This document shows positions 39,891 to 62,524 of a stretch of DNA of 64,000 nt, one piece after another (the first letter of the stretch is position 1; every line of letters begins with the position of its first letter). The stretch is from an uncultured Clostridia bacterium (lineage in GTDB: Bacteria > Bacillota > Clostridia > TANB77 > CAG-508), in contig OZ006978.1 of NCBI GenBank assembly GCA_963931155.1, positions 1,300,692 through 1,364,691 of the forward strand, given 5' to 3'. The translations under genes were made by a program, and so were the position numbers. Under the pieces are notes generated by a model. That model had not been told where the DNA came from. It did not search any database and saw nothing but the letters and a program-made list of their open reading frames with translations.

Positions 39891-42089
39891 ATGTCAGAAT
39901 ATAAAAATAAAAAAATTGAAGATGTAATAGCAGTGGTGAAAAAGAAGAAAGGAAGACGTGATACAAAATTAATACAACGAGCTTATGATTATGCAAATGC
40001 AAAACATGGAGACCAAAAAAGAAAATCTGGAGAACCATATATAATTCACCCATTGCAAGTATCTTATATTTTAGCTGACTTAGGTATGGACGACAACACT
40101 ATTTGTGCTGCACTTTTACATGATGTTTTAGAAGATACTGATACTACATACGATGATTTAGTAAAAGAATTCAACCAAGAAGTTGCATATATGGTAGATG
40201 GTGTTACAAAGCTTAGTAAGTTGCAATATGCAAGTGTTGAAGAACAACAAGTTGAAAACTACAGAAAAATGTTTTTGGCAATGGGAAAAGACATACGTGT
40301 AATCCTAATTAAACTTGCGGACAGACTTCATAATATGAGAACTTTAAAATATTTATCTAGAGATAGGCAAATAGCAAATGCTAAAGAAACAATGGAACTT
40401 TATGCACCACTAGCAAATAGACTAGGTGTATATTCATTAAAATGGGAACTTGAGGATTTATCATTTAAATATTTATATCCAGAAGAGTATAGAGAACTAG
40501 TAGAAGGTATAAATAAAAAAAGAGAAGAAAGACTTAAATTTATAGAGCAAATAATGGATCAAATAAGAGAAGAACTAAGAAATCAAAAAATAGATGCAGA
40601 AGTAACAGGAAGAGCAAAGCATTTATATAGTATATATAGAAAAATGAAAAGAGATAATAAAACATTGGATCAAATATATGATTTATTTGCATTAAGAATA
40701 TTGGTAAACTCAGTAAAGGACTGTTATGCAGCACTTGGGGTAGTACATGATTTATATAATCCAATGCCAGGAAGATTTAAAGACTATATTGCTGTGCCAA
40801 AACCAAATATGTACCAATCATTACATACAACTCTAATAGGTCCAAAAGGAACACCATTTGAAGTACAAATTCGTACATGGGATATGCATAGAGTTGCAGA
40901 ATATGGTATTGCTGCACATTGGGCATATAAAGAGTCTAGCTTTTTTAGTGGAAGAAAATCAAATGTAAAAGTACAAGATGATAAATTAGCATGGGTAAGA
41001 GAAACCTTGGAATGGCAAAGCGAAATGCAAGATCCAGATGAATTTATGTCTACCTTAAAGAAAGAATTATTTGTAGACGAAGTATATATTTTTACACCAA
41101 AAGGTGCAATAAAAGTACTTCCAAAAGGATCAACACCAATAGACTTTGCATATCAAATACACGAACAAATAGGACATAAAATGGTTGGCTGTAAAATAAA
41201 TAGTAAAATGATGCCAATTACAACAAAACTAAAAAATGGTGATATAGTTGAAATAATAACATCAGACCAATCAAAAGGACCAAGTAGAGATTGGCTAAAA
41301 TTTGTAAAAAGCTCAAGAGCGAGAAATAAAATATTAGGTTGGTTTAAGAAAAATCAAAGAGAAGAAAATATAGAAAAAGGAAAAGACATAATAGAAAGAG
41401 AACTAAAGAAGATTGGTGTAAAACATGATGATTTATTTAAAAATGAATTTGTACAGCCGGCATTAAACAGATATAAATATAATAGCTTAGATGATATGTA
41501 TGCAAGTGTTGGATTTGGCTCAATATCTGCAGGAAAAATTATATCTAGAATGTTAGAAGAGTATAGAAAAGTCCATAAAGAAGATGATATAGAAAAAACA
41601 CTACAAGAATTATCAAAAGAAAAAGTGCATAGAGAAAAACCATCATCAAATGGTGTTATAGTAAAAGGAATAGACAACTGTTTAGTAAAACTATCAAGAT
41701 GCTGTAATCCAGTACCAGGAGACGAGATAATAGGATATATAACAAGAGGAAGAGGGGTATCTGTACATAGAACAGACTGTGTAAATGCAAAAAATCTATT
41801 ATCAGACGGAAACAGAATAATAGATGTATACTGGAGCAACCAAAAAACAACATATAGTGTAGACATAGAAATATATGCAAATGACAGATCAGGACTTTTA
41901 GCAGACATAATAAATGTATTAGGAAATACAAAATGCAAATTACAAGCAGTAAATTCAAAAGCAAACAAAGAAAAAATTGCAATTACTGAAGTTACAGTAG
42001 AAGTAGAAAATATAGAACAACTAAACCAAGTATTAAAAGCATTAAGAAAAGTAGATAGTGTATACGAAGTAAAAAGAAAGAAACAATAA
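39891..42089 (+). CDS. relA: bifunctional (p)ppGpp synthetase/hydrolase Rel
   Basis: HD hydrolase, synthetase (YQSLHTT, EVQIRT), TGS and ACT domains. 732 aa. Confidence 0.95.
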   Translation: MSEYKNKKIEDVIAVVKKKKGRRDTKLIQRAYDYANAKHGDQKRKSGEPYIIHPLQVSYILADLGMDDNTICAALLHDVLEDTDTTYDDLVKEFNQEVAYMVDGVTKLSKLQYASVEEQQVENYRKMFLAMGKDIRVILIKLADRLHNMRTLKYLSRDRQIANAKETMELYAPLANRLGVYSLKWELEDLSFKYLYPEEYRELVEGINKKREERLKFIEQIMDQIREELRNQKIDAEVTGRAKHLYSIYRKMKRDNKTLDQIYDLFALRILVNSVKDCYAALGVVHDLYNPMPGRFKDYIAVPKPNMYQSLHTTLIGPKGTPFEVQIRTWDMHRVAEYGIAAHWAYKESSFFSGRKSNVKVQDDKLAWVRETLEWQSEMQDPDEFMSTLKKELFVDEVYIFTPKGAIKVLPKGSTPIDFAYQIHEQIGHKMVGCKINSKMMPITTKLKNGDIVEIITSDQSKGPSRDWLKFVKSSRARNKILGWFKKNQREENIEKGKDIIERELKKIGVKHDDLFKNEFVQPALNRYKYNSLDDMYASVGFGSISAGKIISRMLEEYRKVHKEDDIEKTLQELSKEKVHREKPSSNGVIVKGIDNCLVKLSRCCNPVPGDEIIGYITRGRGVSVHRTDCVNAKNLLSDGNRIIDVYWSNQKTTYSVDIEIYANDRSGLLADIINVLGNTKCKLQAVNSKANKEKIAITEVTVEVENIEQLNQVLKALRKVDSVYEVKRKKQ

Positions 42090-49740: not shown

Positions 49741-49855
49741 TTGGTAAATTTTATTTTTTTTTGTAAACTACTTGATAAAAAATTATTTGTATAATATGAT
49801 ATAAATGTATAAATAAAAATGAAGTTTGAGTATATTTTTACAAAGGAGGAGTTTT

Positions 49856-51172
49856 ATGGGAAATATAAAGATAAACTTTGATAATGCAAAGGATTTTGAG
49901 AAAAAAATAATGAAGTATTCTAGGCAAGTTAAAGAAACTCATAAAGAATTACATGCAAAAGCTGACTATAAAAATGAATTTTGTGGATGGCTTAATTTAC
50001 CTACAAATTATGATAAAGAAGAGTTTGAAAAAATAAAAAAAGCTGCTAAAAAAATACAAGCAGATTCAGATATATTATTAGTTATTGGAATTGGAGGTTC
50101 TTATTTAGGTGCTAGAGCTGTTATTGAATCTCTTAATAACACATTTTACAATATGCAAGATAATACTCAAAGAAAAACACCTCAAATATTATATGTAGGA
50201 AATTCACTAAGTCCAAACTATATAAGTGATTTAGTAAATTATATTGGTGATAAAGATATTTCTATAAATGTTATTTCTAAATCAGGTACAACTACAGAAC
50301 CTGCTATAGCTTTTAGAATTTTTAGAGAAATAATGGAAAACAAATACAGTCTAAAAGAGGCAAGATCTAGAATTTATGTAACAACAGATAGTGAAAAAGG
50401 TGCATTAAAAACACTTGCAGATAAGGAAAAATATACTACATTTGTTATTCCAGATAATGTGGGAGGAAGGTACTCTGTTTTAACAGCTGTTGGTTTACTT
50501 CCAATAGCTACTGCGGGAGTGAATATCGATGAATTAATGGAGGGAGCAAGAATAGCTCAAGACAGATATTCAGATGAAAATTTAAAATATAATGAGTGTT
50601 ATAAATATGCAGTTTTAAGAAATATTTTATATGAAGATGAAAAAAATATAGAAATTTTGGTTACATATGAACCAAAAATGCATTATTTTATTGAATGGTG
50701 GAAACAATTATTTGGAGAAAGTGAAGGTAAGGAGCAAAAAGGAATTTACCCATCTGGAGCAGAATTTACTACAGATTTACATTCATTAGGTCAATATATT
50801 CAACAAGGAAGAAGAAATTTATTTGAAACAGTTATAAGCATAGAAAATCCAGAAAATGATATAGAATTAAAAAAAGAAGAAGATGACATGGATAATTTGA
50901 ATTATTTAGCTGGAAAAACAATGGACTATGTAAACAAAAAAGCGATGGAAGCAACTATTGCAGCACATGTTGAAGGAGATGTTCCAAATATTGTAGTTAA
51001 TATTAATAAATTGGATGCAAATAACATGGGACAATTAATATATTTCTTTGAATTGGCATGTGCTATGTCTGGTTCAATATTAGGAATTAATCCATTTAAT
51101 CAACCAGGAGTGGAAAAATACAAAACAAACATGTTTAAACTATTAGGAAAACCAGGATATGAAGGAAAATAA
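49856..51172 (+). CDS. pgi: glucose-6-phosphate isomerase
   Basis: Firmicute-type PGI of about 440 aa ([18 protein letters not shown]). Start at the ATG after AAAGGAGGAG. Confidence 0.9.
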
Positions 51173-51202
51173 TTCAAATGAAAAAATAAAGAGGAAAAAA
51201 GA

Positions 51203-54200
51203 ATGAAAAACAAAGTAAAAAATTTAAAAAGCTTATTATTTTTATTAATTATTTTTGTAGTATTAGCATTTTCAAACACAGTATATGCTATTGATGGGCT
51301 AACCATTGCAGAACCAACAGATGAATATAAAGCATATATGGAATTAAGTGATGAAGAAAAGAATAAAGTGTTAGAACCAAAAAGATATAATGTTATAGCA
51401 CCAGAGTCAACTTCATCAAAATTAAATAAGATGAATAATTTATTTAAATTAACAGATATACTAGAAGATTCCTTAAATAAAGAATATGATTTAAGAAATA
51501 TAATTCCTAATAATGTTTTAGTAAGAGACCAAATGCAGACAGATTCATGTTGGGCATTTGCAGGATTAGGTATGCTAGAAAGTAGCTTGGGAATGAGAGA
51601 TTACAAGTTAGGAAATACTAAAAATATATATGATTTCTCAGAGAGACATATGTTTTATGCTTCAAAAAGAAGTTTCTTTAATAATAATCAATTCAATGAG
51701 TATGGATATACTACAGATGTTTCAGGAGGAAACTTTAATGAAGTAAGAAACTATTTTACAAATGGAATGGGAGCAATTGCAGAATCTGATATGCCATTTG
51801 AAAATAATGAGAATTATATTAATCTTTCAGACATACAAAACAAAAACACAATAACTACATTATATGACACAATTGAATTTGAAGATATAGAAGATGTGGG
51901 AAAAACAGAGCTTATGGCAAAAATGAAGCAAACTATATCAAATTATGGAGGAATTTTTGCGGGAGTTCATGGTGCACAATTACTTTCAGATGCATATAAC
52001 AATAAAACAGGAGCTATATATTGTGATCCAAATGACCAAGAAAATAGTTACGCAATGAATCATGCTGTTGTAATAATTGGCTGGGATGATAATTATAGCA
52101 GAGATAATTTTAATGAGGAACATAAACCACAAAATAATGGTGCATGGATAGTAAAAAATTCATGGGGAGATCAATTAACTGCAAATTTAAAAGAGCAAAA
52201 GCAAACTTTATATAATAAATATACAGCAGAATATAATGAAAAAGGTTGGTATTCAGCAGATGATATACCAAATGATTATATTATAGAGTTATTTGTTGAA
52301 AATGGTTATGGAGAAGGAAAAGTTTCAATAGAAGGTGAAAACATAGTTATTGATATTGGAGATAATGGTTATATGTATATCTCGTATGAAGATAAAAACA
52401 TATATAATAATCTATATGCAGTTGAAAAAGCTAGTAGTGAGAAAGATTATGACAATTTATATCAACATGATAAAAGGGCAGCTAATATACCAATAATTTA
52501 TCCAACTCAATCAGTGTATATCGCTAATAAATTTGAAAGAGATGCAGAAAAAACAGAATATTTAGATAAAATAGGATTTTATACATATCAAGAAGTTACA
52601 TGTGAAGCTTATGTGAATTCAGCAGATGGAGATTTAACAAATACAAAATTAAAAAAAGTAAACTTAAAAGAGGGAAGTAGCATTACTGTAGAACCAGGCT
52701 ATCATGTTTTAGAATTGGCAGAGCCAGTACAACTAACAGGAAGTTCATTTGTTGTTTCATTACGTATTTCTACAACTGAAGATGAAATAACATTTACAGA
52801 AGAAACTAAGGAAACAGATGAAAATGCTGAAATCGGACCAGACAAAAGTTTCTTTACAGATGATGATAACTTTAAAGTAAACAATTGGGAAGATTTAGGA
52901 ACGTACGAAACAGAAGAGGTTAGAGGAAATTTATCAATAAAAGCATTTACAGATAATGAAGGACCAGTTAAAAACTTAGAAAAAATTGAAATAACTACAC
53001 CACCAACTAAAACAGAATATATGGAAGGAGAAACCTTTGATAAAACAGGAATGGTTGTAAAGGCAAGTTATAGTAATTCCACATCACAAGAGGTAACAAA
53101 TTATAAAATTACAGATGGAGATAAACTTACATATGGGCAAGACCATGTTACTATACAATATGAAGAAAATGGAATTTCAAAAACTGCAACACAAGCTATT
53201 ACTGTAAACAAGGAAGAAACGCCAGAGCCTGTAGAAATTACAAATGTAACTATTAAGTCACTTCCTAGTAAATTAACATATATACAAAATGAAGAAGAAT
53301 TAGATTTAACTGGAGGTGTTTTAGAAGTAACATATAGTGATGGTAATGTAATTCAGTTAGATATGAAATCTACAGAGATTATTGTTACTGGTTTTGATAA
53401 TACAAAACTTGGAAAACAAACAATAACAATAACATACTCAAATAGACAACTTACTTTTGAAATAGAAATTATAGAAAAGACTGAACCTGTTGATCCTGAG
53501 AATCCAGGTGGTACAGATGAACCAGAAAATCCTGGGCAACCAGAAAACCCTCAAAATCCAGAAGAACAAATAAAACCAGTATTATCTGATTTTACAAATA
53601 TGCGAACAGAATATCTTCAAGCATTAATATATCTTTTTTCAGGAGATGAAGAATCATATATAGATTTTGAAATAAAGGTATCTAATATTGTAAATGGTAG
53701 TGACAAAACAAATTACACTTATTATTATCATTTTTCTGGAATAGGTACAGATGAGAATATTAATAATTGGATAAAAATAGAGAACCCTGAAATAAATGTA
53801 GCAAATGATGGAACAAAAACATTAACATTTAAAGTTAATAGCAAAGATATACCTGATTTTAGTGAAATATCTAAAAGCACAACACTATATTTATATTTAA
53901 AAGAAGATGCAGAAGCATCTGGTGAAACATTAAGTCAGGTAGTGTTAGATGAAGTTGAGAAAACAGAAAATACATTTGTAAAAGTATATAATGATGAAGA
54001 AGAAGTAGGAACAGTAGATGATGTAATTAACATATCAGGAAATAATCATCAAGCTCCAAATACTAACTATTCTGGTACAGAAGATACAGGAGATAATACA
54101 GTAGCAAAAGGAATACTTCCACAAGCAGGAGCTATATCAATAGGAATTGCAATAGCTGTATTAATAGGAATAGGAATATATACATTTATAAAACATAGAA

Positions 54201-54214
54201 ATATAGACAAATAA
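51203..54214 (+). CDS. cell-surface C1 (papain-like) cysteine peptidase with Ig-like repeats and C-terminal sorting-signal-like anchor
   Basis: Signal peptide, QMQTDSCWAF (catalytic Cys), NHAVVIIGWDD (His), bacterial Ig-like repeats, Pro-rich linker. C-terminal LPQAG + TM + KHRNIDK. Confidence 0.8.
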   Translation: MKNKVKNLKSLLFLLIIFVVLAFSNTVYAIDGLTIAEPTDEYKAYMELSDEEKNKVLEPKRYNVIAPESTSSKLNKMNNLFKLTDILEDSLNKEYDLRNIIPNNVLVRDQMQTDSCWAFAGLGMLESSLGMRDYKLGNTKNIYDFSERHMFYASKRSFFNNNQFNEYGYTTDVSGGNFNEVRNYFTNGMGAIAESDMPFENNENYINLSDIQNKNTITTLYDTIEFEDIEDVGKTELMAKMKQTISNYGGIFAGVHGAQLLSDAYNNKTGAIYCDPNDQENSYAMNHAVVIIGWDDNYSRDNFNEEHKPQNNGAWIVKNSWGDQLTANLKEQKQTLYNKYTAEYNEKGWYSADDIPNDYIIELFVENGYGEGKVSIEGENIVIDIGDNGYMYISYEDKNIYNNLYAVEKASSEKDYDNLYQHDKRAANIPIIYPTQSVYIANKFERDAEKTEYLDKIGFYTYQEVTCEAYVNSADGDLTNTKLKKVNLKEGSSITVEPGYHVLELAEPVQLTGSSFVVSLRISTTEDEITFTEETKETDENAEIGPDKSFFTDDDNFKVNNWEDLGTYETEEVRGNLSIKAFTDNEGPVKNLEKIEITTPPTKTEYMEGETFDKTGMVVKASYSNSTSQEVTNYKITDGDKLTYGQDHVTIQYEENGISKTATQAITVNKEETPEPVEITNVTIKSLPSKLTYIQNEEELDLTGGVLEVTYSDGNVIQLDMKSTEIIVTGFDNTKLGKQTITITYSNRQLTFEIEIIEKTEPVDPENPGGTDEPENPGQPENPQNPEEQIKPVLSDFTNMRTEYLQALIYLFSGDEESYIDFEIKVSNIVNGSDKTNYTYYYHFSGIGTDENINNWIKIENPEINVANDGTKTLTFKVNSKDIPDFSEISKSTTLYLYLKEDAEASGETLSQVVLDEVEKTENTFVKVYNDEEEVGTVDDVINISGNNHQAPNTNYSGTEDTGDNTVAKGILPQAGAISIGIAIAVLIGIGIYTFIKHRNIDK

Positions 54215-54245
54215 AAAATTATAAAATTGTGTTATAATAAAACTA

Positions 54246-54515
54246 TTGACATAATGTGCTTATATAAGTTATAATATGAATTGTATTTAAATAAACAAAA
54301 ACATAAATGAGACAAAGTAAAATAAGGGTTGTTTACAGAGAGGAATAGTTATAAGCTGAAAGCTATTCTAAATAAATGTATTTGAAAAACTACCTCATTG
54401 TTTCTAGAAAAACTAGACGTATGCTTGCGTTAAAAGTTAATTAAGTTAAATAAAGGGTGGAACCGTGTATAAAAAAGCACCCCTCTAATAGTTACTATTA
54501 GAGGGGGCTTTTATA
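54246..54515 (+). promoter_or_regulatory. promoter (TTGACA-18-TATAAT) and T-box riboswitch leader (Thr specifier) of thrS
   Basis: AGAGA stem I motif, specifier region aaaaACUAcc, T-box aaaGGGTGGaACCGtg, terminator agcacccctctaatag/ctattagagggggctttt. Confidence 0.7.
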
Positions 54516-54517
54516 TG

Positions 54518-54647
54518 TAATAGGAAATTTCTCTGAAATTCCTATTACATATAAAGGCTATAATCGCCATTGCCTTTAGGATTTCCTCCTTATAGTCGGA
54601 AACCTAAATCGGCACGAACAAATGGTGACTTCGACCTTTTGTTCTCC
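54518..54647 (+). repeat. MITE/PATE-like element (hairpin + diverged core) inserted between the T-box terminator and the thrS start
   Basis: gtaataggaaatttctctgaaattcctattac followed by a core of about 100 nt related to 28544-28639. Confidence 0.55.
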
Positions 54648-54678
54648 AAATAGATAAAATAAAGAAAGGATGATTATT

Positions 54679-56589
54679 ATGAAAATTACTTTAAAAGATG
54701 GATCTATCAAAGAAGTAAAACAAGGTATTACAGTTTTAGAATTAGCAAAAGAAATAAGCGAAGGGTTAGCTAGAATGGCAACTTGTGCCAAAGTTAATGG
54801 AAAAGTAAGAGATTTAAGATATGAAATTAAAGAAGACTCAGAAGTTGAAATATGCACTTTTGAAAATAGTGAAGATGGAAAAAAAGCGTATTGGCATACA
54901 ACAGCACATATAATGGCACAAGCTATTAAAAGAATATATGGAAATGATATAAAATTAACAATAGGACCTGCAATTGATAAAGGTTTTTATTACGATTTTG
55001 ATGTTAAAGAAAATATTTCTTCAGACGACTTTGAAAAGATTGAGGCAGAAATGAAGAAAATAATAAAAGAAGATTTGCCAATTGAAAGATTTACTCTTCA
55101 AAGAAATGAAGCTATAAAATTTATGAAAGAACAAGCAGAAGACTATAAAGTCGAATTAATAGAAGAACTTCCTGAAGGAGAGGAAATATCATTTTATAAG
55201 CAAGGAGAATTTACAGACCTTTGTGCAGGACCACACTTAATGAGTACAGGAAAAGTTAAAGCAGTTAAGATATTATCCTCTTCAGGAGCATATTGGAGAG
55301 GTGACGAGAATAATAAAATGCTTCAAAGATTTTATGGAATATCTTATCCAAAGGCTAGCCAATTGGAAGAGTATTTAAATATGCTAGAAGAAGCTAAAAA
55401 ACGTGACCATAAAAAACTAGGAAAAGAATTAGAATTATTTATGATTGCACCAGAAGGACCAGGATTCCCATTTTTCTTACCAAAGGGAATGGTACTAAGA
55501 AACGTACTAGAGGATTTTTGGAGAGATATTCATAGAAAAAACGGATATGTTGAAATAAAAACTCCAATGATATTAAATGAAGAATTATGGCATCGTTCAG
55601 GACATTGGGATCATTACAAAGAAAATATGTATACCACAAAAATAGATGATGTAGATTATGGTATTAAGCCAATGAACTGCCCAGGAGGAATGCTTGTATA
55701 TAAGAGTAAAATGCATTCATACAAGGATTTACCAATAAGAGCAGGAGAGTTAGGACTAGTTCACAGACATGAAAAATCTGGAGAATTAAATGGATTATTC
55801 AGAGTAAGATGCTTCACACAAGATGATGCACATATATTTTGTTTGCCAGAGCAAATAGAAGCTGAAATAGCAGGAATAATGAAACTTGTAGATGAAGTGT
55901 ATAGCATTTTTGGATTTGAATATACAGTAGAGCTTTCTACAAGACCAGAAGATTCAATGGGGTCTGATGAGCAATGGAAAATGGCAGAAGGAGCCTTAAA
56001 AAAAGTACTTAAAGATATGGATATGCCATATGAAATAAATGAAGGAGATGGAGCTTTCTATGGCCCTAAGATAGATTTCCATATAAAAGACTCCTTAGGA
56101 CGTGAATGGCAATGCGGTACAATACAACTAGATTTCCAAATGCCAGAGAGATTTGACTTAACATATATTGGTGAAGATGGAGAAAAACATAGACCAGTTA
56201 TGCTTCATAGGGTTATATTTGGAAGTATAGAAAGATTTATTGGAGTACTTATTGAAAATTATGCAGGAGCATTCCCAACATGGCTTGCACCAGTACAAGT
56301 AGAACTCTTGTCAATTGCAGATACACATGTAGAATATGCAAATCAAGTAAAAGCAAAATTAGAAGATGTTGGAATTAGAGTAGAGTTAGATGATAGAAAT
56401 GAAAAAATTGGATATAAGATAAGAGAAGCACAACTTCAAAAAATACCTTATATGCTAATACTAGGAGATAAAGAAAAAGAAAAAGGAACAGTAGGTGTTC
56501 GTTCTAGAAAAGATGGAGACATAGGAGCAATGGATTTAGATGATTTTATTGCTAAAATAGTTGAAGAAATAGATACTTTTGCAAAATAA
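54679..56589 (+). CDS. thrS: threonine--tRNA ligase
   Basis: TGS domain, class II core, anticodon-binding domain. Start at MKITLKDG. Confidence 0.95.
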   Translation: MKITLKDGSIKEVKQGITVLELAKEISEGLARMATCAKVNGKVRDLRYEIKEDSEVEICTFENSEDGKKAYWHTTAHIMAQAIKRIYGNDIKLTIGPAIDKGFYYDFDVKENISSDDFEKIEAEMKKIIKEDLPIERFTLQRNEAIKFMKEQAEDYKVELIEELPEGEEISFYKQGEFTDLCAGPHLMSTGKVKAVKILSSSGAYWRGDENNKMLQRFYGISYPKASQLEEYLNMLEEAKKRDHKKLGKELELFMIAPEGPGFPFFLPKGMVLRNVLEDFWRDIHRKNGYVEIKTPMILNEELWHRSGHWDHYKENMYTTKIDDVDYGIKPMNCPGGMLVYKSKMHSYKDLPIRAGELGLVHRHEKSGELNGLFRVRCFTQDDAHIFCLPEQIEAEIAGIMKLVDEVYSIFGFEYTVELSTRPEDSMGSDEQWKMAEGALKKVLKDMDMPYEINEGDGAFYGPKIDFHIKDSLGREWQCGTIQLDFQMPERFDLTYIGEDGEKHRPVMLHRVIFGSIERFIGVLIENYAGAFPTWLAPVQVELLSIADTHVEYANQVKAKLEDVGIRVELDDRNEKIGYKIREAQLQKIPYMLILGDKEKEKGTVGVRSRKDGDIGAMDLDDFIAKIVEEIDTFAK

Positions 56590-56602
56590 AGCAGGTCATA
56601 TT

Positions 56603-56632
56603 GAAAAAAATCAAAAAAATGCTATAATCATT
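56603..56632 (+). promoter_or_regulatory. sigma-A-like promoter TTGAAA-16-TATAAT for the HD gene
   Basis: Read directly upstream of the strong SD GTAAGGAGGAG. Confidence 0.45.
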
Positions 56633-56665
56633 AAATAGTTAAAACTACTATGTAAGGAGGAGCTT

Positions 56666-57097
56666 ATGGTATATACTGAAGCAACTGAAAGAGCGATGAG
56701 AATCGCATATAATGCACATCATGGACAACTTGACAAATCAGGAGTACCTTACATTTTCCACCCTATTCATTTGGCAGAACAGATGGGAACGGAGGCGGAG
56801 TGCATTGTTGCACTTTTGCATGACACGGTGGAGGACACCGATGTGACCCTAGATGAGCTGTCAGAACAGTTTTCGAGCAGTATCATCGAGGCTTTGAAGC
56901 TTCTTACACATGACAAGTCTGTGGACTACTTCGACTATGTTAGGATGGTGAAGGACAATCCGATTGCAAGGAAAGTTAAGCTTGCAGATCTAAGACACAA
57001 TAGTGACATGTCTAGAATCAAAAATCCAACTGAAAAGGATTGGAGGCGTGCAAAGAAGTATCAAAAAGCGATTGAAATGTTGAATAGGGAGGAATAA
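56666..57097 (+). CDS. small HD-domain (p)ppGpp-hydrolase-like protein (small alarmone hydrolase, SAH-type)
   Basis: 143 aa aligning with the HD domain of the window's own Rel (HPIHLAEQ..., ALLHDTVEDT). GC rises to about 45 % after the first 100 nt. Confidence 0.8.
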   Translation: MVYTEATERAMRIAYNAHHGQLDKSGVPYIFHPIHLAEQMGTEAECIVALLHDTVEDTDVTLDELSEQFSSSIIEALKLLTHDKSVDYFDYVRMVKDNPIARKVKLADLRHNSDMSRIKNPTEKDWRRAKKYQKAIEMLNREE

Positions 57098-57102
57098 GTC
57101 TT

Positions 57103-57139
57103 CCACCAAAAAAGAGACCATTGGTCTCTTTTTTGGTGG
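57103..57139. terminator. bidirectional hairpin terminator
   Basis: ccaccaaaaaagagaccattggtctcttttttggtgg. Confidence 0.7.
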
Positions 57140-57157
57140 ATAGAAAAAGTGATAAAT

Positions 57158-57186
57158 TTGAGAAAATAGCTAAAATATGCTATAAT
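57158..57186 (+). promoter_or_regulatory. sigma-A promoter TTGAGA-17-TATAAT for the synthetase-domain gene
   Basis: Near-consensus hexamers, 17-nt spacer. SD AAAGGAG 7 nt before the ATG at 57231. Confidence 0.55.
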
Positions 57187-57230
57187 TAAAGAGTAAACCG
57201 TTTTACAAACAACCGAAAGGAGTATGCAAC

Positions 57231-58142
57231 ATGAGGGTTACAGACACCCTGGAATTTCCTGATATGCAGGAAATTCTGGAAAAAGCGCACAACATCGATG
57301 ATGTTTGGACTGCGCTTATCGCATGGTTCAGTGAGGATCCAAACAACTTGGAGAAGGTCGCATGTGCGAACAAGCTCATCGAGTTTAACAACATGCGGAA
57401 TTCGGATCTGGTCATCAAGCTTGATCAAGATGTTCGTGAAATCAAAGATGTCCTTCGCGGGATATCCAGAAGATACGGACACACGATTACAGTGACCAGG
57501 CGTCAAAAGGCGCTCATTGGTGTCATCGCAAAGATGGTGATACTAATTCAGCGAGGTGAGAAACGAGGCACGAATGTGTTCTCCTCTCTTGAAAGTCTGA
57601 AAGACTTTATCGGCATTCGAATTGTTGCTCAGACTGGAAAGAAGGATACACCAAAAAGCCAGCAGATGGCTTACGACATCATGAACGAGGTGCTTAGGTT
57701 CCTTGTTGTCGACAAGAAGAACACTCTGTCTACGGTCACACAGGATCGCACGGTGCGAGAGCTGGATGGCATCTTGATTCCGAAGGAGTCTGGAGTTTTG
57801 GACGTCTTCAGGGACAACGTGAAGGACTACTTTTACTATGCCAAACCCAATGGCTACCAGTGCCTGCACGCTGTTCCCATGGGACCTGACCAGCAAACGG
57901 TCGAGATTCAGGTAAGGACTCAAGAAGCCGAAGTGCGAGCAGAGTATGCCGAGGCAACTAGCCATGAAGCTCACAGACTGCTTCGCTATGAAGACTTCGA
58001 GATTCCGGTCGACCTGTCTAGGGTCGACATCGAAGGTGTCACCTTGGTTGAATTCGAGGGCGAAACTTCGGTTCCTAGTGGCACCATCTACGATAGAGTC
58101 GGACTCGTTAGCTCGGTTGATCCATTGAACCTTTTGCGTTAG
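57231..58142 (+). CDS. RelA/SpoT-synthetase-domain protein (small alarmone synthetase / toxSAS-like nucleotide pyrophosphokinase), GC-rich
   Basis: About 48 % GC. Aligns to the Rel synthetase core: DFIGIRIVAQT (DLFALRILV), NGYQCLHAV (YQSLHT), EIQVRTQ...AEYAEA (EVQIRT...AEYGIA). Confidence 0.8.
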   Translation: MRVTDTLEFPDMQEILEKAHNIDDVWTALIAWFSEDPNNLEKVACANKLIEFNNMRNSDLVIKLDQDVREIKDVLRGISRRYGHTITVTRRQKALIGVIAKMVILIQRGEKRGTNVFSSLESLKDFIGIRIVAQTGKKDTPKSQQMAYDIMNEVLRFLVVDKKNTLSTVTQDRTVRELDGILIPKESGVLDVFRDNVKDYFYYAKPNGYQCLHAVPMGPDQQTVEIQVRTQEAEVRAEYAEATSHEAHRLLRYEDFEIPVDLSRVDIEGVTLVEFEGETSVPSGTIYDRVGLVSSVDPLNLLR

Positions 58143-58148
58143 AGGTTG

Positions 58149-58186
58149 CAATTGCCCGGGGAGAAATTCCCTGGGCAATTGTTTTG
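58149..58186 (+). terminator. GC-rich rho-independent terminator
   Basis: caattgcccgggg-agaaatt-ccctgggcaattg followed by ttttgg. Confidence 0.65.
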
Positions 58187-58312
58187 GAAAAATAAGAAAG
58201 TTTAGTAACTTTATTATATAAAAACTTTTTCTGAAATTCATATTTTCATATAGAATAATAAAGAAACTTGTGATATAATGCAATACGAAAGAATAATTGA
58301 AGGAGGCAAATT

Positions 58313-60757
58313 ATGGCTAGAACTGCTAAAACAGTAAAAACAACAGAGGCTACAAAAACTACAAAAACACCTAGAACTACCAAAAAAGTCACAAAAAAAG
58401 AGCCAGATAATGAAGTAAATAGCAAATTGAAATATATTGGACTTAATTTAAACAGAATACCAGCATTTTTAAAAGAACATGAAAGCCTAAATTTCAGACC
58501 TTCTAAATCGTATGATGATACAATTTATAAAGTATATAGATATGTTAATATAAAAAATATAGAAATTTTAATAACACCACAAGATAGACTAACTGACATA
58601 AAAGAAAAATATAAATTAGCAAGCCCAATTCGTGATTACTTGGATAAAAAGAATATAGAAAATGCTGAAAAACATGAAACTTTTATAAAGCTAATTGAAA
58701 CTATTAACGAAACAAGAATTGAAGAAATAGCCAAAGAACAAGAAAAATTAAACGAAAAAATACCATATGAAGTAAAATATCCAAACAATTATATATGGCA
58801 AGTATATTATTCAGATTATGCAAAAAAATATTTTATGCTTGCAACTACAAAAGAACAAGATAATAACGCAATGTTTTACTTGTTAAAAGAACAAATAGCA
58901 CATGCAAGAGCTAAAAAAGGAAATTATATATTTATTCCAATAAGTCATTTAGAATATTCTGGATTATACTTAACAAAATCAGAAATTTCAGATATTGAAA
59001 ATTATTTATGGTATTTTACAAAAGAATGGCCAAATGTATATGAGATATTTGATAAAGACAATAATCTATTTATTAAAGTTGTAGGAATTACAAATATATA
59101 TGATAAAATAAAAACCACATATAGTATAACTTTAGATTCTAAAGAAAAATCATTAGAGTTTTACAAATTGCTAAAAGCCATGTTTATACTAGCAACAGGC
59201 GCAAAGGAAGAATTTAAATTTGTAACAAAGATAAATCCAGAAGGCGAGTTAGAGTTTTGGCATAATAATCATTTAATTAAATATGCAAATCTTTCTGAAT
59301 ATATAAAATTAGAGTATTTAGATAAAATTGATAGACTAAAAAAAGAAATAAAAGATGGAGCAGAACTTGAAAGAAAACTAAGTAAATTTAAAATAGTTAT
59401 TGAAGAATTAACACAAGATTACTTACAAAGGCAAAGACAAATTGCGACATTTCTAGAATGTAAAAAAACTTTTTTTGGTAAAGTTAAATATTTCTTTAAA
59501 AAGAAAAAAGACAATAAAGATGTTCGAATACTAAAAGAGCAAAAAACTTTAAATAGAAGAAATGAAAGTAAAGGTGTAAAAGACGAAGCACAAGACGAAA
59601 CATTAAAAGAATTATATATGTTAAAACAACAATATACAATAGAGGATTTAATTAATATATGTGCAAAACTAGAAGAAATAGTTAAGAAAAATACAAATTT
59701 AACATTAGATATCAAAGCAATAGAAACAAAAAAAGATATATTAGCTAAAAAAATTGACAATGCTGATTTATACATAAAAGAAATAGACAAACACAAGAAG
59801 AGCATTTTTGAATTTTGGAAATTTACTAGCAAAGATGAGGTACAAACCCTACATGAAGCAGAAGAACAAGAAAAAGCAGAGCAAATAAAAATGAAAAAGT
59901 ATTTCGATTATCAAGATGATTTAGAAGATTTAGGAAAAATTGTTGATGAAGTTCAAAGAAGAAAATTATCAAAAAATGAAACAGATGCAATATTTGCTTT
60001 AAAACAAGTGCCAGCATCATTTAAAGAATTAAATGATGAAATAGATGCAGAATTACTTGAAATAAAAGAAAATAAAACAGTAAAACCAAAAAGAAAAACT
60101 GGGAAGAAAGAAAGTCAATTAGAAAAGGATTTAAACAAATTAAAAAAAGAATACGAAGATAATATAGAAGTAATAAATAGTAAAGATTTTGACATTTTTG
60201 GTAGCTTAGTCGAAGACAAAACTAAACTAAAAAGCATTAACAATGAAAAACATAGAGAAATAGAAAAAGACAAATTTAAAATATTAAATATAAGTTTAGA
60301 CACAAATATTAAAACATATAAAGAAAACTTAGAAAGCTATTTATCACTTATAAAAGAATCATTAAATAAAATAAAATCACCATATGATATGTCTGTATAT
60401 TGTGTAAATGATAAAAAAACAGTTCAGGGAATACGAATATTTAATATGAATCCAAAAACAGCTTTAAAAAATGAACTTACAGGGAAAAAAGAAAAAATAA
60501 CATTATGTAAAATAAATATAAAAGAAAATACACCAGCAGTATTTTATAGCAATATAATATTTTATGATAATTATAATAAAACATTACCAGTAGGAATGAA
60601 CTTATCATCAGAAATAGTGTTAGATGTAAACAAATTAAAATTAAAATTTGTAAAAGAAGATACATTTTATATGAATTACAAAGTAAATGAATTTGACTTT
60701 GCAACAAAAGAAATAGAAATTTATGAATATAATGCAGATTATGAAACAAAAGAATAA
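58313..60757 (+). CDS. large K/E-rich hypothetical protein (814 aa), Thr/Lys-rich N-terminus, coiled-coil C-terminal half
   Basis: SD GAAGGAGG, host-like codon usage, no recognisable catalytic motif. Confidence 0.6.
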   Translation: MARTAKTVKTTEATKTTKTPRTTKKVTKKEPDNEVNSKLKYIGLNLNRIPAFLKEHESLNFRPSKSYDDTIYKVYRYVNIKNIEILITPQDRLTDIKEKYKLASPIRDYLDKKNIENAEKHETFIKLIETINETRIEEIAKEQEKLNEKIPYEVKYPNNYIWQVYYSDYAKKYFMLATTKEQDNNAMFYLLKEQIAHARAKKGNYIFIPISHLEYSGLYLTKSEISDIENYLWYFTKEWPNVYEIFDKDNNLFIKVVGITNIYDKIKTTYSITLDSKEKSLEFYKLLKAMFILATGAKEEFKFVTKINPEGELEFWHNNHLIKYANLSEYIKLEYLDKIDRLKKEIKDGAELERKLSKFKIVIEELTQDYLQRQRQIATFLECKKTFFGKVKYFFKKKKDNKDVRILKEQKTLNRRNESKGVKDEAQDETLKELYMLKQQYTIEDLINICAKLEEIVKKNTNLTLDIKAIETKKDILAKKIDNADLYIKEIDKHKKSIFEFWKFTSKDEVQTLHEAEEQEKAEQIKMKKYFDYQDDLEDLGKIVDEVQRRKLSKNETDAIFALKQVPASFKELNDEIDAELLEIKENKTVKPKRKTGKKESQLEKDLNKLKKEYEDNIEVINSKDFDIFGSLVEDKTKLKSINNEKHREIEKDKFKILNISLDTNIKTYKENLESYLSLIKESLNKIKSPYDMSVYCVNDKKTVQGIRIFNMNPKTALKNELTGKKEKITLCKINIKENTPAVFYSNIIFYDNYNKTLPVGMNLSSEIVLDVNKLKLKFVKEDTFYMNYKVNEFDFATKEIEIYEYNADYETKE

Positions 60758-60759
60758 AA

Positions 60760-60792
60760 AAGGATATCAATTTGATATCCTTTTTTATTCGG
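60760..60792 (+). terminator. rho-independent terminator
   Basis: aaaaggatatcaa-ttt-gatatcctttttt. Confidence 0.65.
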
Positions 60793-60901
60793 TGTATTTT
60801 TCTATTAATAATATAATAATAAAAAAGTGCAAAAAAGAGATTGACAAAACGAACACTTGGTTGTAAAATATAACAAACAAATTTTCTATAGGAGGATAAA
60901 A

Positions 60902-62524
60902 ATGATATCTACTTTGCATATAAAAAATATAGGAATTATAGAGGATATAATAATTGATTTTAACGAAGGATTTAATGTTTTAACAGGTGAAACTGGTGCA
61001 GGAAAATCTTTAATAATAAATGCATTAAATATAATTTCTGGAGGAAGATTTTCAAAAGAGATGATTCGAAATGGAGAAAAAAATTCTTTTGTTGAAGCAA
61101 GTATATATTGCCCTGAAAATCCACATTCTGTTGATGGAAATATTATAGTTTCTAGAGAAATATATATAAATGGAAGAAACTCATGTAAAATAAACGGAAG
61201 ATTAGTTACAGTAAATGAATTAAAAGAATTTATGCAAGATTTAATAGATATACATGGTCAACAAGATAACTATAATTTATTAGATGAAACCAAACATATA
61301 TCATATTTGGATGACTTTGCAGGAAAAGAATTAATAAAATTAAAATCAGAGTATTATTCATTATTTGAAAGATATTGTAATATAAATAAAGAATTAAGCA
61401 AAAATTATGGGGATGACAAAGAAAAAGAAAGAAGATTAGATTTATTAAACTATGAATTAAAAGAAATCACAAATGCAAAATTAAAAATTAATGAGGATAT
61501 AAAATTACAAGAAGAACATAATATAATGAAAAATTCTGAAAAATTACAAGAAAACCTACATATAGTAGATGATAGCTTATCCAATCAAGCAATAGAAAGT
61601 ATTTCTATATCTATAAGAAGCTTAGAAAAAATATCAAACTTTGGCAATCAGTATGAAGAAAAACTTTCTGAATTAAAGAATATTTATTATGAAGTACAAG
61701 AATTAGCAAGAGATATTTCCATAATGAATGATGAAATCAGTTTTGATGAGGAAGAAAGAGATGTAATAGAAAAAAGATTGGACGAAATCTATTCTTTAAA
61801 AAGGAAATATGGCAATACTATAGAAGAAATACTTTTATATAAAGAAAAATTAGAAAACGAAATAAATGAAATAGAAAATGTTGATGAAATTAATAATAAA
61901 TTAAAACAAGAAAAGCAAGAAATAGAACAAAAAATGCTAAAAATATGTAATAATATAACAGCCATAAGAATAGAAAAAGCAAAAGAATTATCAAATTTAA
62001 TAAATAAAGAACTATCAGATTTAGAAATGTATAATGCAGTATTAAGAGTTGAAGTAGAAAACAAAAATGAATTCGATAGAAATGGTTTGAATAAAGTAAA
62101 ATTTTTAATATCAACAAATAAAGGGGAAGAAGAAAAAGAATTAACTAAAATTGCATCTGGTGGAGAAATGTCAAGAGTAATGCTGGGAATAAAAACAGTT
62201 TTAGCAGATGTAGACAAAGTATATACCCTAATATTTGATGAAATAGATACAGGAATTAGTGGAAAAGCAGCAAAAGCTGTAGGAGAAAAATTGAGAAAGA
62301 TTTCTAATAATCATCAAGTTATAATAGTAACGCACCTAGCTTCAATTGCGGCAAAAGGTGACTATAACTACTTTATAAGCAAAAATATTAAAAATGATAA
62401 AACATATACAAAAGTAAGGTTATTAAATGAAGAAGAAACAATAAAAGAAATTGCAAGAATATCAACTGGGGATATAACAAAAACATCTTTAGAACATGCA
62501 AAAGAATTAAGAAAAGTATCTTAA
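60902..62524 (+). CDS. recN: DNA repair protein RecN
   Basis: SMC-like: Walker A GETGAGKS, long coiled coil, signature/D-loop region near the C-terminus. Start after AGGAGG. The ORF is open from 60857. Promoter TTGACA-17-TAAAAT lies upstream. Confidence 0.9.
   Translation: MISTLHIKNIGIIEDIIIDFNEGFNVLTGETGAGKSLIINALNIISGGRFSKEMIRNGEKNSFVEASIYCPENPHSVDGNIIVSREIYINGRNSCKINGRLVTVNELKEFMQDLIDIHGQQDNYNLLDETKHISYLDDFAGKELIKLKSEYYSLFERYCNINKELSKNYGDDKEKERRLDLLNYELKEITNAKLKINEDIKLQEEHNIMKNSEKLQENLHIVDDSLSNQAIESISISIRSLEKISNFGNQYEEKLSELKNIYYEVQELARDISIMNDEISFDEEERDVIEKRLDEIYSLKRKYGNTIEEILLYKEKLENEINEIENVDEINNKLKQEKQEIEQKMLKICNNITAIRIEKAKELSNLINKELSDLEMYNAVLRVEVENKNEFDRNGLNKVKFLISTNKGEEEKELTKIASGGEMSRVMLGIKTVLADVDKVYTLIFDEIDTGISGKAAKAVGEKLRKISNNHQVIIVTHLASIAAKGDYNYFISKNIKNDKTYTKVRLLNEEETIKEIARISTGDITKTSLEHAKELRKVS

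Follow-up and report, generated by a model that had tools for sequence, protein, structure and literature searches.

A predicted (p)ppApp hydrolase gene newly placed beside an old small alarmone synthetase gene in uncultured Clostridia

Organization of the locus

The subject of this analysis is a 64,000-nucleotide stretch of the genome of an uncultured Clostridia bacterium (contig OZ006978.1 of assembly GCA_963931155.1; hereafter, the window), within which an HD-domain alarmone hydrolase gene (hereafter, HD gene) is followed by a gene for a small alarmone synthetase (SAS), each forming its own transcription unit, 3' of the threonyl-tRNA synthetase gene thrS. The original prediction had interpreted the two genes as one horizontally acquired module, recently inserted after thrS and akin to the toxin-antitoxin systems in which the toxin is an SAS (toxSAS). 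We find that the locus consists of two transcription units of different age and is not a single module.

The hydrolase unit is an inserted cassette (56591..57145, plus strand) that encompasses a promoter, a leader, the gene and a terminator, and was delineated by aligning the window and locus L013 with loci L018 and L001 (L numbers denote the loci that were compared with the window). The predicted promoter (56601..56628, plus strand) consists of TTGAAA, a 16-nt spacer and a TG-extended TATAAT, matching the sigma-70 consensus in 11 of the 12 positions; the gene (56666..57097, plus strand) encodes a protein of 143 aa; and a bidirectional intrinsic terminator (57099..57144) follows, whose 19-nt arms (57102-57120 and 57122-57140) pair perfectly and lie between an A-run and a T-run. 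The hairpin at 57102-57140 has a folding energy of -30.9 kcal/mol (z-score -8.2), and none of 200 shuffled sequences yielded an equally good fold. The SAS promoter (57158..57186, plus strand; TTGAGA, 17-nt spacer, TATAAT, TG-extended -10 element, again 11/12 matches to sigma-70) precedes the SAS gene (57231..58142, plus strand), which encodes a 303-aa protein and is followed by a terminator hairpin (58148..58182, plus strand; arms 58149-58162 and 58168-58181, -26.9 kcal/mol, z-score -5.1, then GTTTTGG); therefore, the SAS gene is monocistronic. The transcriptional anatomy outlined in the original prediction, with a hairpin terminator and a near-consensus promoter for each gene, was thus recovered, and the accompanying caution that this is no textbook toxSAS arrangement is correct.

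The hydrolase

The 143-aa protein matches the HD_4 profile (PF13328; E = 4.5e-8, 33.4 bits, cutoff 27.2) and aligns with the hydrolase domain of the Rel protein encoded in the same window (39891-42089) at 34% identity over 126 aa (E = 2e-13), in agreement with its initial assignment to the HD hydrolases. Its best solved relative is PDB 7SMG, described as a "(p)ppApp hydrolase" (E = 1.1e-33, 46% identity, residues 7-140 aligned with 8-142). This structure is that of Aph1 (adenosine 3'-pyrophosphohydrolase 1) from Bacteroides caccae, the founding member of the Aph family, whose hydrolases are specific for (p)ppApp (Ahmad et al. 2023, PMC10083569). The proteins are similar in size (143 aa and 149 aa in Aph1) and homologous over the full length, including the C-terminal ~53 residues that define the Aph family, in contrast to the HD_4 and Rel profiles, which cover just the N-terminal ~80 residues. 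Both also have the HD/ED motifs, five of the family signature residues and the compact HD fold of ~145 aa, in which two helices present in (p)ppGpp hydrolases are missing.

In the HD protein, the catalytic pairs are H52-D53 and E56-D57, which are invariant among the 121 nearest homologues. The signature of the Aph family consists of D24, R96, D116, R119, K133 and Y134, of which D24 and R119 form the specificity switch (PMC10083569). Five of these six residues, both switch residues included, are present in the HD protein (D23, D114, R117, K131, Y132) and are essentially invariant in the same 121 homologues, and the Rel of the window has an Arg of the ppGpp type in place of D23. Unlike Aph1, the HD protein has M94 in the position of R96, with R93 adjacent, and its activity is predicted from sequence. 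All 12 tested Aph homologues hydrolyzed ppApp, and Aph enzymes barely act on (p)ppGpp (PMC10083569). Accordingly classified on its residues and full-length match, the HD protein is predicted to be an Aph1-type (p)ppApp-specific 3'-pyrophosphohydrolase, adding a member to a known family. Aph homologues form more than 6,700 clusters, and the HD family is also common in phages (phrog_990, E = 9e-50). The HD gene itself is under purifying selection (dN/dS, the ratio of nonsynonymous to synonymous divergence, of 0.13 against L013).

Insertion of the hydrolase cassette

At this locus, the HD gene is found solely beside SAS copies that are at least 98% identical to that of the window (L007-L017). It is absent where the SAS is 91% (L018), 88% (L071-L074) or 86% (L076) identical, and also from L001. 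In the alignment, the ~555-bp cassette (56591-57145) stands in place of ~70 bp that hold the thrS terminator in the relatives without the HD gene, and, to the right of the cassette, L018 and L001 have almost the same SAS promoter and leader as the window. Absence from the site in close relatives, a common criterion for genomic islands, thus characterizes the HD cassette and not the SAS gene. The HD gene is a recent, lineage-specific addition. Outside its lineage, the closest homologues reach only 73-76% identity. Because the promoter, the leader next to the ribosome-binding site (RBS) and the terminator of the cassette are all homologous to those of a stand-alone Aph unit (L028, 73% protein identity), which lies between lonC and ogg in a genome of 27.5% GC, HD was transplanted as a whole transcription unit. 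We also considered the possibility that the HD promoter is a copy of the SAS promoter, given a 24-nt repeat of 83% identity, and rejected it, as a better alignment of the region upstream of HD is obtained with the native Aph unit of L028. In the window, the cassette is not accompanied by genes of mobile elements or phages.

A T-box leader is predicted 5' of thrS (54295-54487; RF00230, E = 1e-14) with a score of 71.5 bits, under the Rfam gathering score of 93. With the thrS terminator lost and no terminator-like fold between the end of thrS and the start codon of HD (-9.1 kcal/mol, z-score -0.6), T-box-controlled thrS transcripts may read into the HD gene.

In the comparison of window positions 49826-62524 with L013, the synonymous divergence (dS) drops from 0.18-0.22 in pgi, the C1 peptidase gene, thrS and HD to 0.06-0.11 in SAS, the 814-aa gene and recN. 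This pattern implies that the strains of the window and L013 recently underwent homologous recombination with a breakpoint between the HD cassette and the SAS gene.

The synthetase subfamily

The 303-aa protein matches the RelA_SpoT profile (PF04607; E = 2.1e-12, 47.8 bits, cutoff 27) in residues 91-240, and all the motifs on which its original assignment as a synthetase was based can be read in the translation: TRRQK (89-93), DFIGIRIV (125-132), YQCLH (209-213), EIQVRT (225-230) and RAEY (236-239). It is a single-domain protein with a synthetase fold and without HD, TGS or ACT domains, in which N-terminal helices (1-85) and a conserved C-terminal region (256-303, ending in IDPLNLL) flank the catalytic core (86-242). 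The structure predicted from an alignment of 20 sequences (mean local confidence, pLDDT, of 88.6; global confidence, pTM, of 0.87) retrieved N-terminal regions of Rel, RelP and RelQ in a Foldseek search (E = 5e-7 to 1e-5).

A word-index search yielded 19 clusters of related proteins, and an exhaustive profile search, ~240 representative clusters at E <= 1e-10, nearly all of them 280-320 aa in length and matching end to end. Thus, the N- and C-terminal extensions that had been noted in the window protein are present and not peculiar to it. Because the matches across the ~240 clusters run from end to end, the N-terminal helices and the C-terminal region are hallmarks of a distinct, uncharacterized SAS subfamily of ~290 aa that has a conserved architecture of its own. 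In part, the N-terminal helices match a helix located ahead of beta-1 in every synthetase of the RelA/SpoT homologue (RSH) superfamily.

We assessed the catalytic set in 60 diverse family members. It comprises the R-x-K residues that contact the phosphates of ATP, the Asp of DxxGxR that binds Mg, Tyr and His of YQSLH, which stack on the acceptor, and Glu and Gln of EIQIRT. The residues R91, K93, K101, D125, K198, Y200, Y209, H213, E225 and Q227, which we take to be the equivalents of the Rel residues from an HMM alignment and the RelSeq numbering, are invariant or nearly so, as is R130. In the C-terminal region of the same 60 proteins, D288 is invariant, and G269, G291 and the IDP(L/F)N tail are nearly so; many family members terminate in GF..G.I.D.VGL..S(I/V)DP(L/F)N.L. 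The enzyme is very probably active and, because the RelA/SpoT catalytic set is complete, is most likely a kinase that adds the pyrophosphate of ATP to a purine nucleotide at its 3'-OH. The isoelectric point (pI) of the window protein is 5.2 overall, with a basic core (pI 9.0) between acidic N- and C-terminal extensions (pI 4.9 and 4.5).

Conservation and age of the synthetase gene

In every related genome that was recovered (L001-L006, L018-L026, L036-L037, L071-L076), the SAS gene lies between thrS and a gene for a protein of ~800 aa; the original prediction had left it to such a comparison whether thrS is directly followed by the latter gene, and SAS intervenes throughout. Among these are genomes in which an SAS 67-69% identical to that of the window is embedded in the order pgi, C1 peptidase, thrS, SAS, ~800-aa gene, recN, without the HD gene. 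A scan of species-representative genomes recovered ten loci, all from metagenome-assembled genomes of uncultured Clostridia, and the gene order was kept in nine of these. In the ten loci, the identity to the window was 32-91% for SAS, 65-95% for thrS, 67-82% for the ~800-aa protein and 70-88% for RecN. The gene order is also unchanged around a more distant family member (P0164).

The pairwise identity of SAS tracks that of RecN (Spearman coefficient of 0.71; 0.67 for the ~800-aa gene). Compared with L018, the SAS gene has a dS of 0.84, with 0.66-0.77 in the flanks, and a dN/dS of 0.06; the protein evolves 3-4 times faster than its neighbors. In 10 orthologous loci, the TGnTATAAT element of the SAS promoter is invariant, and the TTG is nearly invariant; the promoter is ancestral to the clade. 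Beyond the promoter and the RBS, the SAS leader is conserved in close relatives only. We also rejected riboswitches or other structured RNAs in the SAS leader and between the genes: Rfam detected the thrS T-box only, and the leader folds no better than shuffled sequences (z-score -0.05).

The synteny, the identity that tracks RecN, the dS close to that of the flanks and the clade-invariant promoter all show that SAS is an old, vertically inherited resident of these very AT-rich uncultured Clostridia. A recent transfer of SAS was rejected because of the synteny, the tracking of host distances by those of SAS, the agreement in dS between SAS and its flanks, and the balance of polarized substitutions (see below). 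The claim of a single acquired hydrolase-synthetase module does not hold, given that SAS is syntenic throughout the clade and its divergence tracks that of the host.

The gene has decayed in one sub-lineage. In L026 (7599-8108), SAS is reduced to the 3' half, equivalent to residues 139-287, and fused directly behind thrS; in L025 (8001-8752), a relative of L026, it carries a frameshift near the DFLGxR motif, which is possibly an assembly error. Given this decay, SAS is dispensable in at least one lineage.

Base composition of the synthetase gene

The GC content is 42.4% in HD (GC at third codon positions, GC3, of 0.44), 48.8% in SAS (0.57), 31.9% in thrS (0.17) and 23.5% in the 814-aa gene (0.125); for the flanking thrS, 814-aa gene and recN, GC3 is 0.12-0.17. 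The GC contrast reported in the original prediction is therefore present, but its interpretation as a mark of recent transfer fails because the orthologues keep it and the substitutions are balanced. In every lineage, the SAS orthologues have a GC3 of 0.31-0.57, as opposed to 0.10-0.22 in the flanks, and distant family members in other genomic contexts are likewise local GC3 maxima (0.18-0.35 against 0.06-0.20). The high GC3 is thus a stable property of the whole family, as seen in the window and in L001, L018-L024, L036, L038, L066, L068 and L069. Conservation next to thrS at uniform GC, which had been named as an observation that would speak against acquisition, was found with respect to conservation and not to uniform GC.

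The GC3 of SAS is 0.55-0.57 in the window and L018 alike, despite a dS of 0.84. When polarized by L001, the synonymous changes in SAS include 24 from AT to GC and 17 from GC to AT, that is, no excess of GC to AT. In a two-rate decay model that assumes GC3 to equilibrate at 0.13 and the flank dS to be ~0.35 per lineage, a neutral gene would be expected to shed about four-fifths of its excess GC3, with which the data appear incompatible. The composition of SAS is held steady, without amelioration toward that of the host. A gene with a GC3 of 0.57 in a genome with a GC3 of 0.13 mimics a textbook recent transfer, yet here is an old resident, so that compositional island calls can be wrong.

Candidate causes of the high GC3, any of which may apply, are throttling at the codon level downstream of the invariant strong promoter, GC-biased gene conversion and effects on mRNA stability. 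An antisense gene was rejected as the constraint: the 246-aa open reading frame at 57543-58283 (minus strand) is not conserved in the orthologues and reappears in 338 of 500 shuffles of synonymous codons. This frame is the exact reverse register of SAS and a by-product of the near absence of TTA, CTA and TCA codons.

Neighboring genes

The conserved upstream anchor of the locus is thrS (54670..56589, plus strand), the homologous gene of the related loci encoding a protein with the Pfam domains TGS, tRNA_SAD, tRNA-synt_2b and HGTP_anticodon. Two allele classes of thrS exist in the clade (window, L001, L018, L020-L023, L025, L026), with 64-69% amino acid identity between and 86-96% within the classes. 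The classes are discordant with recN, the 814-aa gene and SAS: for instance, the relatives L022 and L023 (78% identity in RecN, 61% in SAS) differ in class (69% in ThrS). This suggests that thrS has been replaced by transfer within the group. The toxSAS FaRel2 targets tRNA-Gly and tRNA-Thr (bioRxiv 10.1101/2024.07.05.602228), and we considered a functional link of SAS to thrS or tRNA-Thr. It was rejected, as the adjacency to thrS is confined to the clade, with distant family members located elsewhere, and the similarity to FaRel is low.

Between pgi and thrS, the window encodes a 1003-aa secreted protein with C1-peptidase and Big_3 domains (51203-54214), which evolves very rapidly, showing 57% amino acid identity and a dN/dS of 0.41 in comparison with L001, and 47-48% identity to deeper relatives, its position being unchanged. 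Sister lineages carry, between the C1 peptidase gene and thrS, a gene for a small DUF4190 membrane protein (L001-L006, 5277-5626; L071, 933-1265), which is missing in the window and L013. Downstream of SAS, the 814-aa gene (58313-60757) has its own promoter-like sites and encodes a protein with a Lys/Thr-rich N-terminus. It is conserved in every member of the clade (67-85% amino acid identity), always between SAS and recN, and had no match in Pfam, NCBIfam, PADLOC, PHROGs or the PDB.

Functional interpretation

Taken together, the predicted activities suggest a scheme in which the old, monocistronic SAS would make or co-make the adenosine alarmone (p)ppApp, alone or together with (p)ppGpp, and the newly placed Aph-type hydrolase would degrade the (p)ppApp so produced, the two forming a make-and-break pair for (p)ppApp as the two domains of Rel do for (p)ppGpp. 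SAS would act as a housekeeping or regulatory synthetase, similar to RelP and RelQ. We infer the product of SAS and the functional coupling of the two genes from the fact that a (p)ppApp-specific Aph was fixed beside one of the few RSH genes of the genome. By our estimate, a genome of this kind offers ~2,000 intergenic sites, few of which lie beside an RSH gene, so that a chance landing there is unlikely for a single insertion. That a housekeeping-type SAS has been newly coupled to a (p)ppApp hydrolase is, in our judgment, an even chance.

Several observations weigh against such coupling. It rests on one insertion event in one lineage. Homologues of Aph occur in many contexts, including translation and cell-wall genes (PMC10083569), so that some chance adjacencies are to be expected over all genomes, and the strong bidirectional terminator and separate promoters divide HD and SAS, with no need for co-regulation. 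The closest structures to SAS are those of (p)ppGpp enzymes, and we found in the literature no validated sequence rule for acceptor specificity, so that the product of SAS is not readable from sequence. Finally, a plain housekeeping role does not explain either the fast evolution of the SAS protein or the maintained GC3 anomaly.

Most pertinent among the alternatives is that the two genes are coincidental neighbors: SAS would be a RelQ- or RelP-like enzyme producing (p)ppGpp or pGpp, and the Aph unit would have landed in the permissive intergenic space after thrS, where it serves as an orphan detoxifying or immunity gene against (p)ppApp toxins of phages (MuF-Apk2) or competitors (Tas1-like). 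The (p)ppGpp-type matches of SAS, in sequence as well as structure, and the insulation of HD by the terminator and separate promoters are what this alternative would predict, and so is the lack of an adjacent Aph in any other SAS-bearing lineage. Stand-alone Aph homologues are, furthermore, abundant in housekeeping contexts (between lonC and ogg in L028, within the dcw cluster in L033), the contexts reported for Aph genes include translation genes, with most Aph genes lacking an adjacent synthetase (PMC10083569), and the family is common in phages. However, a single insertion beside one of the very few RSH genes of a genome is improbable by chance, the inserted gene has been kept under purifying selection, and the insertion came without mobile-element or phage genes. 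We consider coincidence possible, if on balance doubtful.

Under another alternative, SAS is an auto-inhibited sensor synthetase similar to CapRel, in which the acidic extensions would hold the basic core off until it is released by a trigger such as a phage protein or a stress signal, with Aph as a later safety valve. The family-wide C-terminal region with its invariant and near-invariant residues (D288; G269, G291 and the IDP(L/F)N tail), the alternation of a basic core and acidic flanks, and the fast evolution of the protein are compatible with such a mechanism, which would also explain how SAS is tolerated alone behind a strong promoter. Nevertheless, the extensions have no detected similarity to the pseudo-zinc-finger domain of CapRel, matches being limited to the ~150-residue core, selection in close comparisons is purifying rather than diversifying, and the gene occupies a core-genome position. 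This makes auto-inhibition quite unlikely.

With respect to the toxSAS interpretation, these systems are defined by an operon, bi- or tricistronic and in many cases overlapping, that joins the SAS with an antitoxin and is conserved across a subfamily (PMC7229694). No partner gene is conserved with the SAS family, which is what the toxin-antitoxin reading in the original prediction would have required: SAS is solo in L001-L006, L018-L024, L036, L038, L066, L069-L070 and L071-L076, and distant family members are solo between housekeeping genes (rimP-nusA, divIVA-sepF, U32 peptidase/methyltransferase). SAS always has its own strong promoter. The toxin-antitoxin architecture is absent. A constitutively toxic enzyme could not persist solo behind a strong promoter; SAS is unlike a toxin in that every lineage tolerates it without an adjacent neutralizer. 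A phage origin of SAS was rejected, too, as no full-length relative was detected in viral contigs (IMG/VR), BFVD or PHROGs, and PADLOC returned for SAS only a weak candidate match (PDC-S33, E = 5.7e-5). Thus, although a synthetase beside a small alarmone hydrolase (SAH) recalls FaRel-ATfaRel (PMC7229694) and Apk2-Tis1-Aph1, Aph1 protects against a (p)ppApp toxin (PMC10083569), and the weak PADLOC match and the fast evolution of SAS could be taken in the same sense, a toxSAS toxin with an SAH antitoxin (type IV or anti-phage), in which the hydrolase would neutralize (pp)pApp synthesis or pyrophosphorylation of the tRNA CCA end, is very unlikely in view of the missing bicistronic architecture, the different ages of HD and SAS with a terminator between them, the core, syntenic location outside any island, the lack of viral or full-length defense-system matches and a dN/dS of 0.06-0.16, which gives no hint of an arms race when close relatives are compared. 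A further, weak consideration is that SAS is acidic, and a tRNA binder is expected not to be. Even taken jointly, the toxin-type readings are unlikely to apply.

Comparison with known systems and implications

We return to the reading in which a housekeeping-type SAS became coupled to a (p)ppApp hydrolase. Like most Aph homologues, the HD gene lies outside a prophage or MuF context. It differs from the aph1 locus in that its neighbor is a chromosomal stand-alone SAS rather than an Apk toxin fused to MuF or PAAR, and there is no Tis1-like immunity gene. The window shares with FaRel-ATfaRel (a toxSAS with a PbcSpo-type SAH antitoxin) and Apk2-Tis1-Aph1 the side-by-side arrangement of a synthetase and a small alarmone hydrolase, the latter of a type shown to counter (p)ppApp toxicity. 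Unlike RelP and RelQ (SAS2 and SAS1), the window SAS is longer by ~90 residues, has ~50 additional helical residues at the N-terminus and the conserved ~50-residue C-terminal region, evolves fast and is anomalous in composition; sequence matches to RelP and RelQ reach just the C-terminal half of the SAS core. In contrast to CapRel(SJ46), a fused toxin-antitoxin tRNA pyrophosphokinase, the SAS extension has no detectable similarity to the sensor domain, the protein is acidic, and the gene is core, syntenic and vertical, being borne by neither a prophage nor an island. Similar to cloRel and other uncharacterized SAS subgroups of Firmicutes (PMC3153485, PMC7229694), the subfamily is a stand-alone, synthetase-only RSH group restricted to Clostridia-like Firmicutes, and it is possibly identical to a subgroup already named yet unstudied, such as cloRel (PMC3153485), with which it was compared by description only.

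What is unusual about this locus is the pairing of a chromosomal SAS without toxin-like features with an Aph gene, together with the maintained compositional anomaly. If the adjacency is coincidental, there is nothing out of the ordinary in this pair, both enzyme families being known. Conversely, a broader proposition, which we put forward tentatively and consider rather improbable, is that the SAS family is the endogenous, non-toxin (p)ppApp synthetase of AT-rich Firmicutes and the missing physiological source of the alarmone that thousands of orphan Aph hydrolases serve to remove. If this is the case, the window records the linking of a synthetase with its hydrolase, and the surplus of codons ending in G or C, actively maintained across the family downstream of an invariant strong promoter, would serve to throttle the translation of a dangerous enzyme or to tune the stability of its mRNA. 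Hydrolases of (p)ppApp are widespread, mostly without an adjacent (p)ppApp-producing toxin, and the physiological source of (p)ppApp has been left open (PMC10083569). A chromosomal, vertically inherited and non-toxin-like SAS with an Aph alongside would be a candidate for that source.

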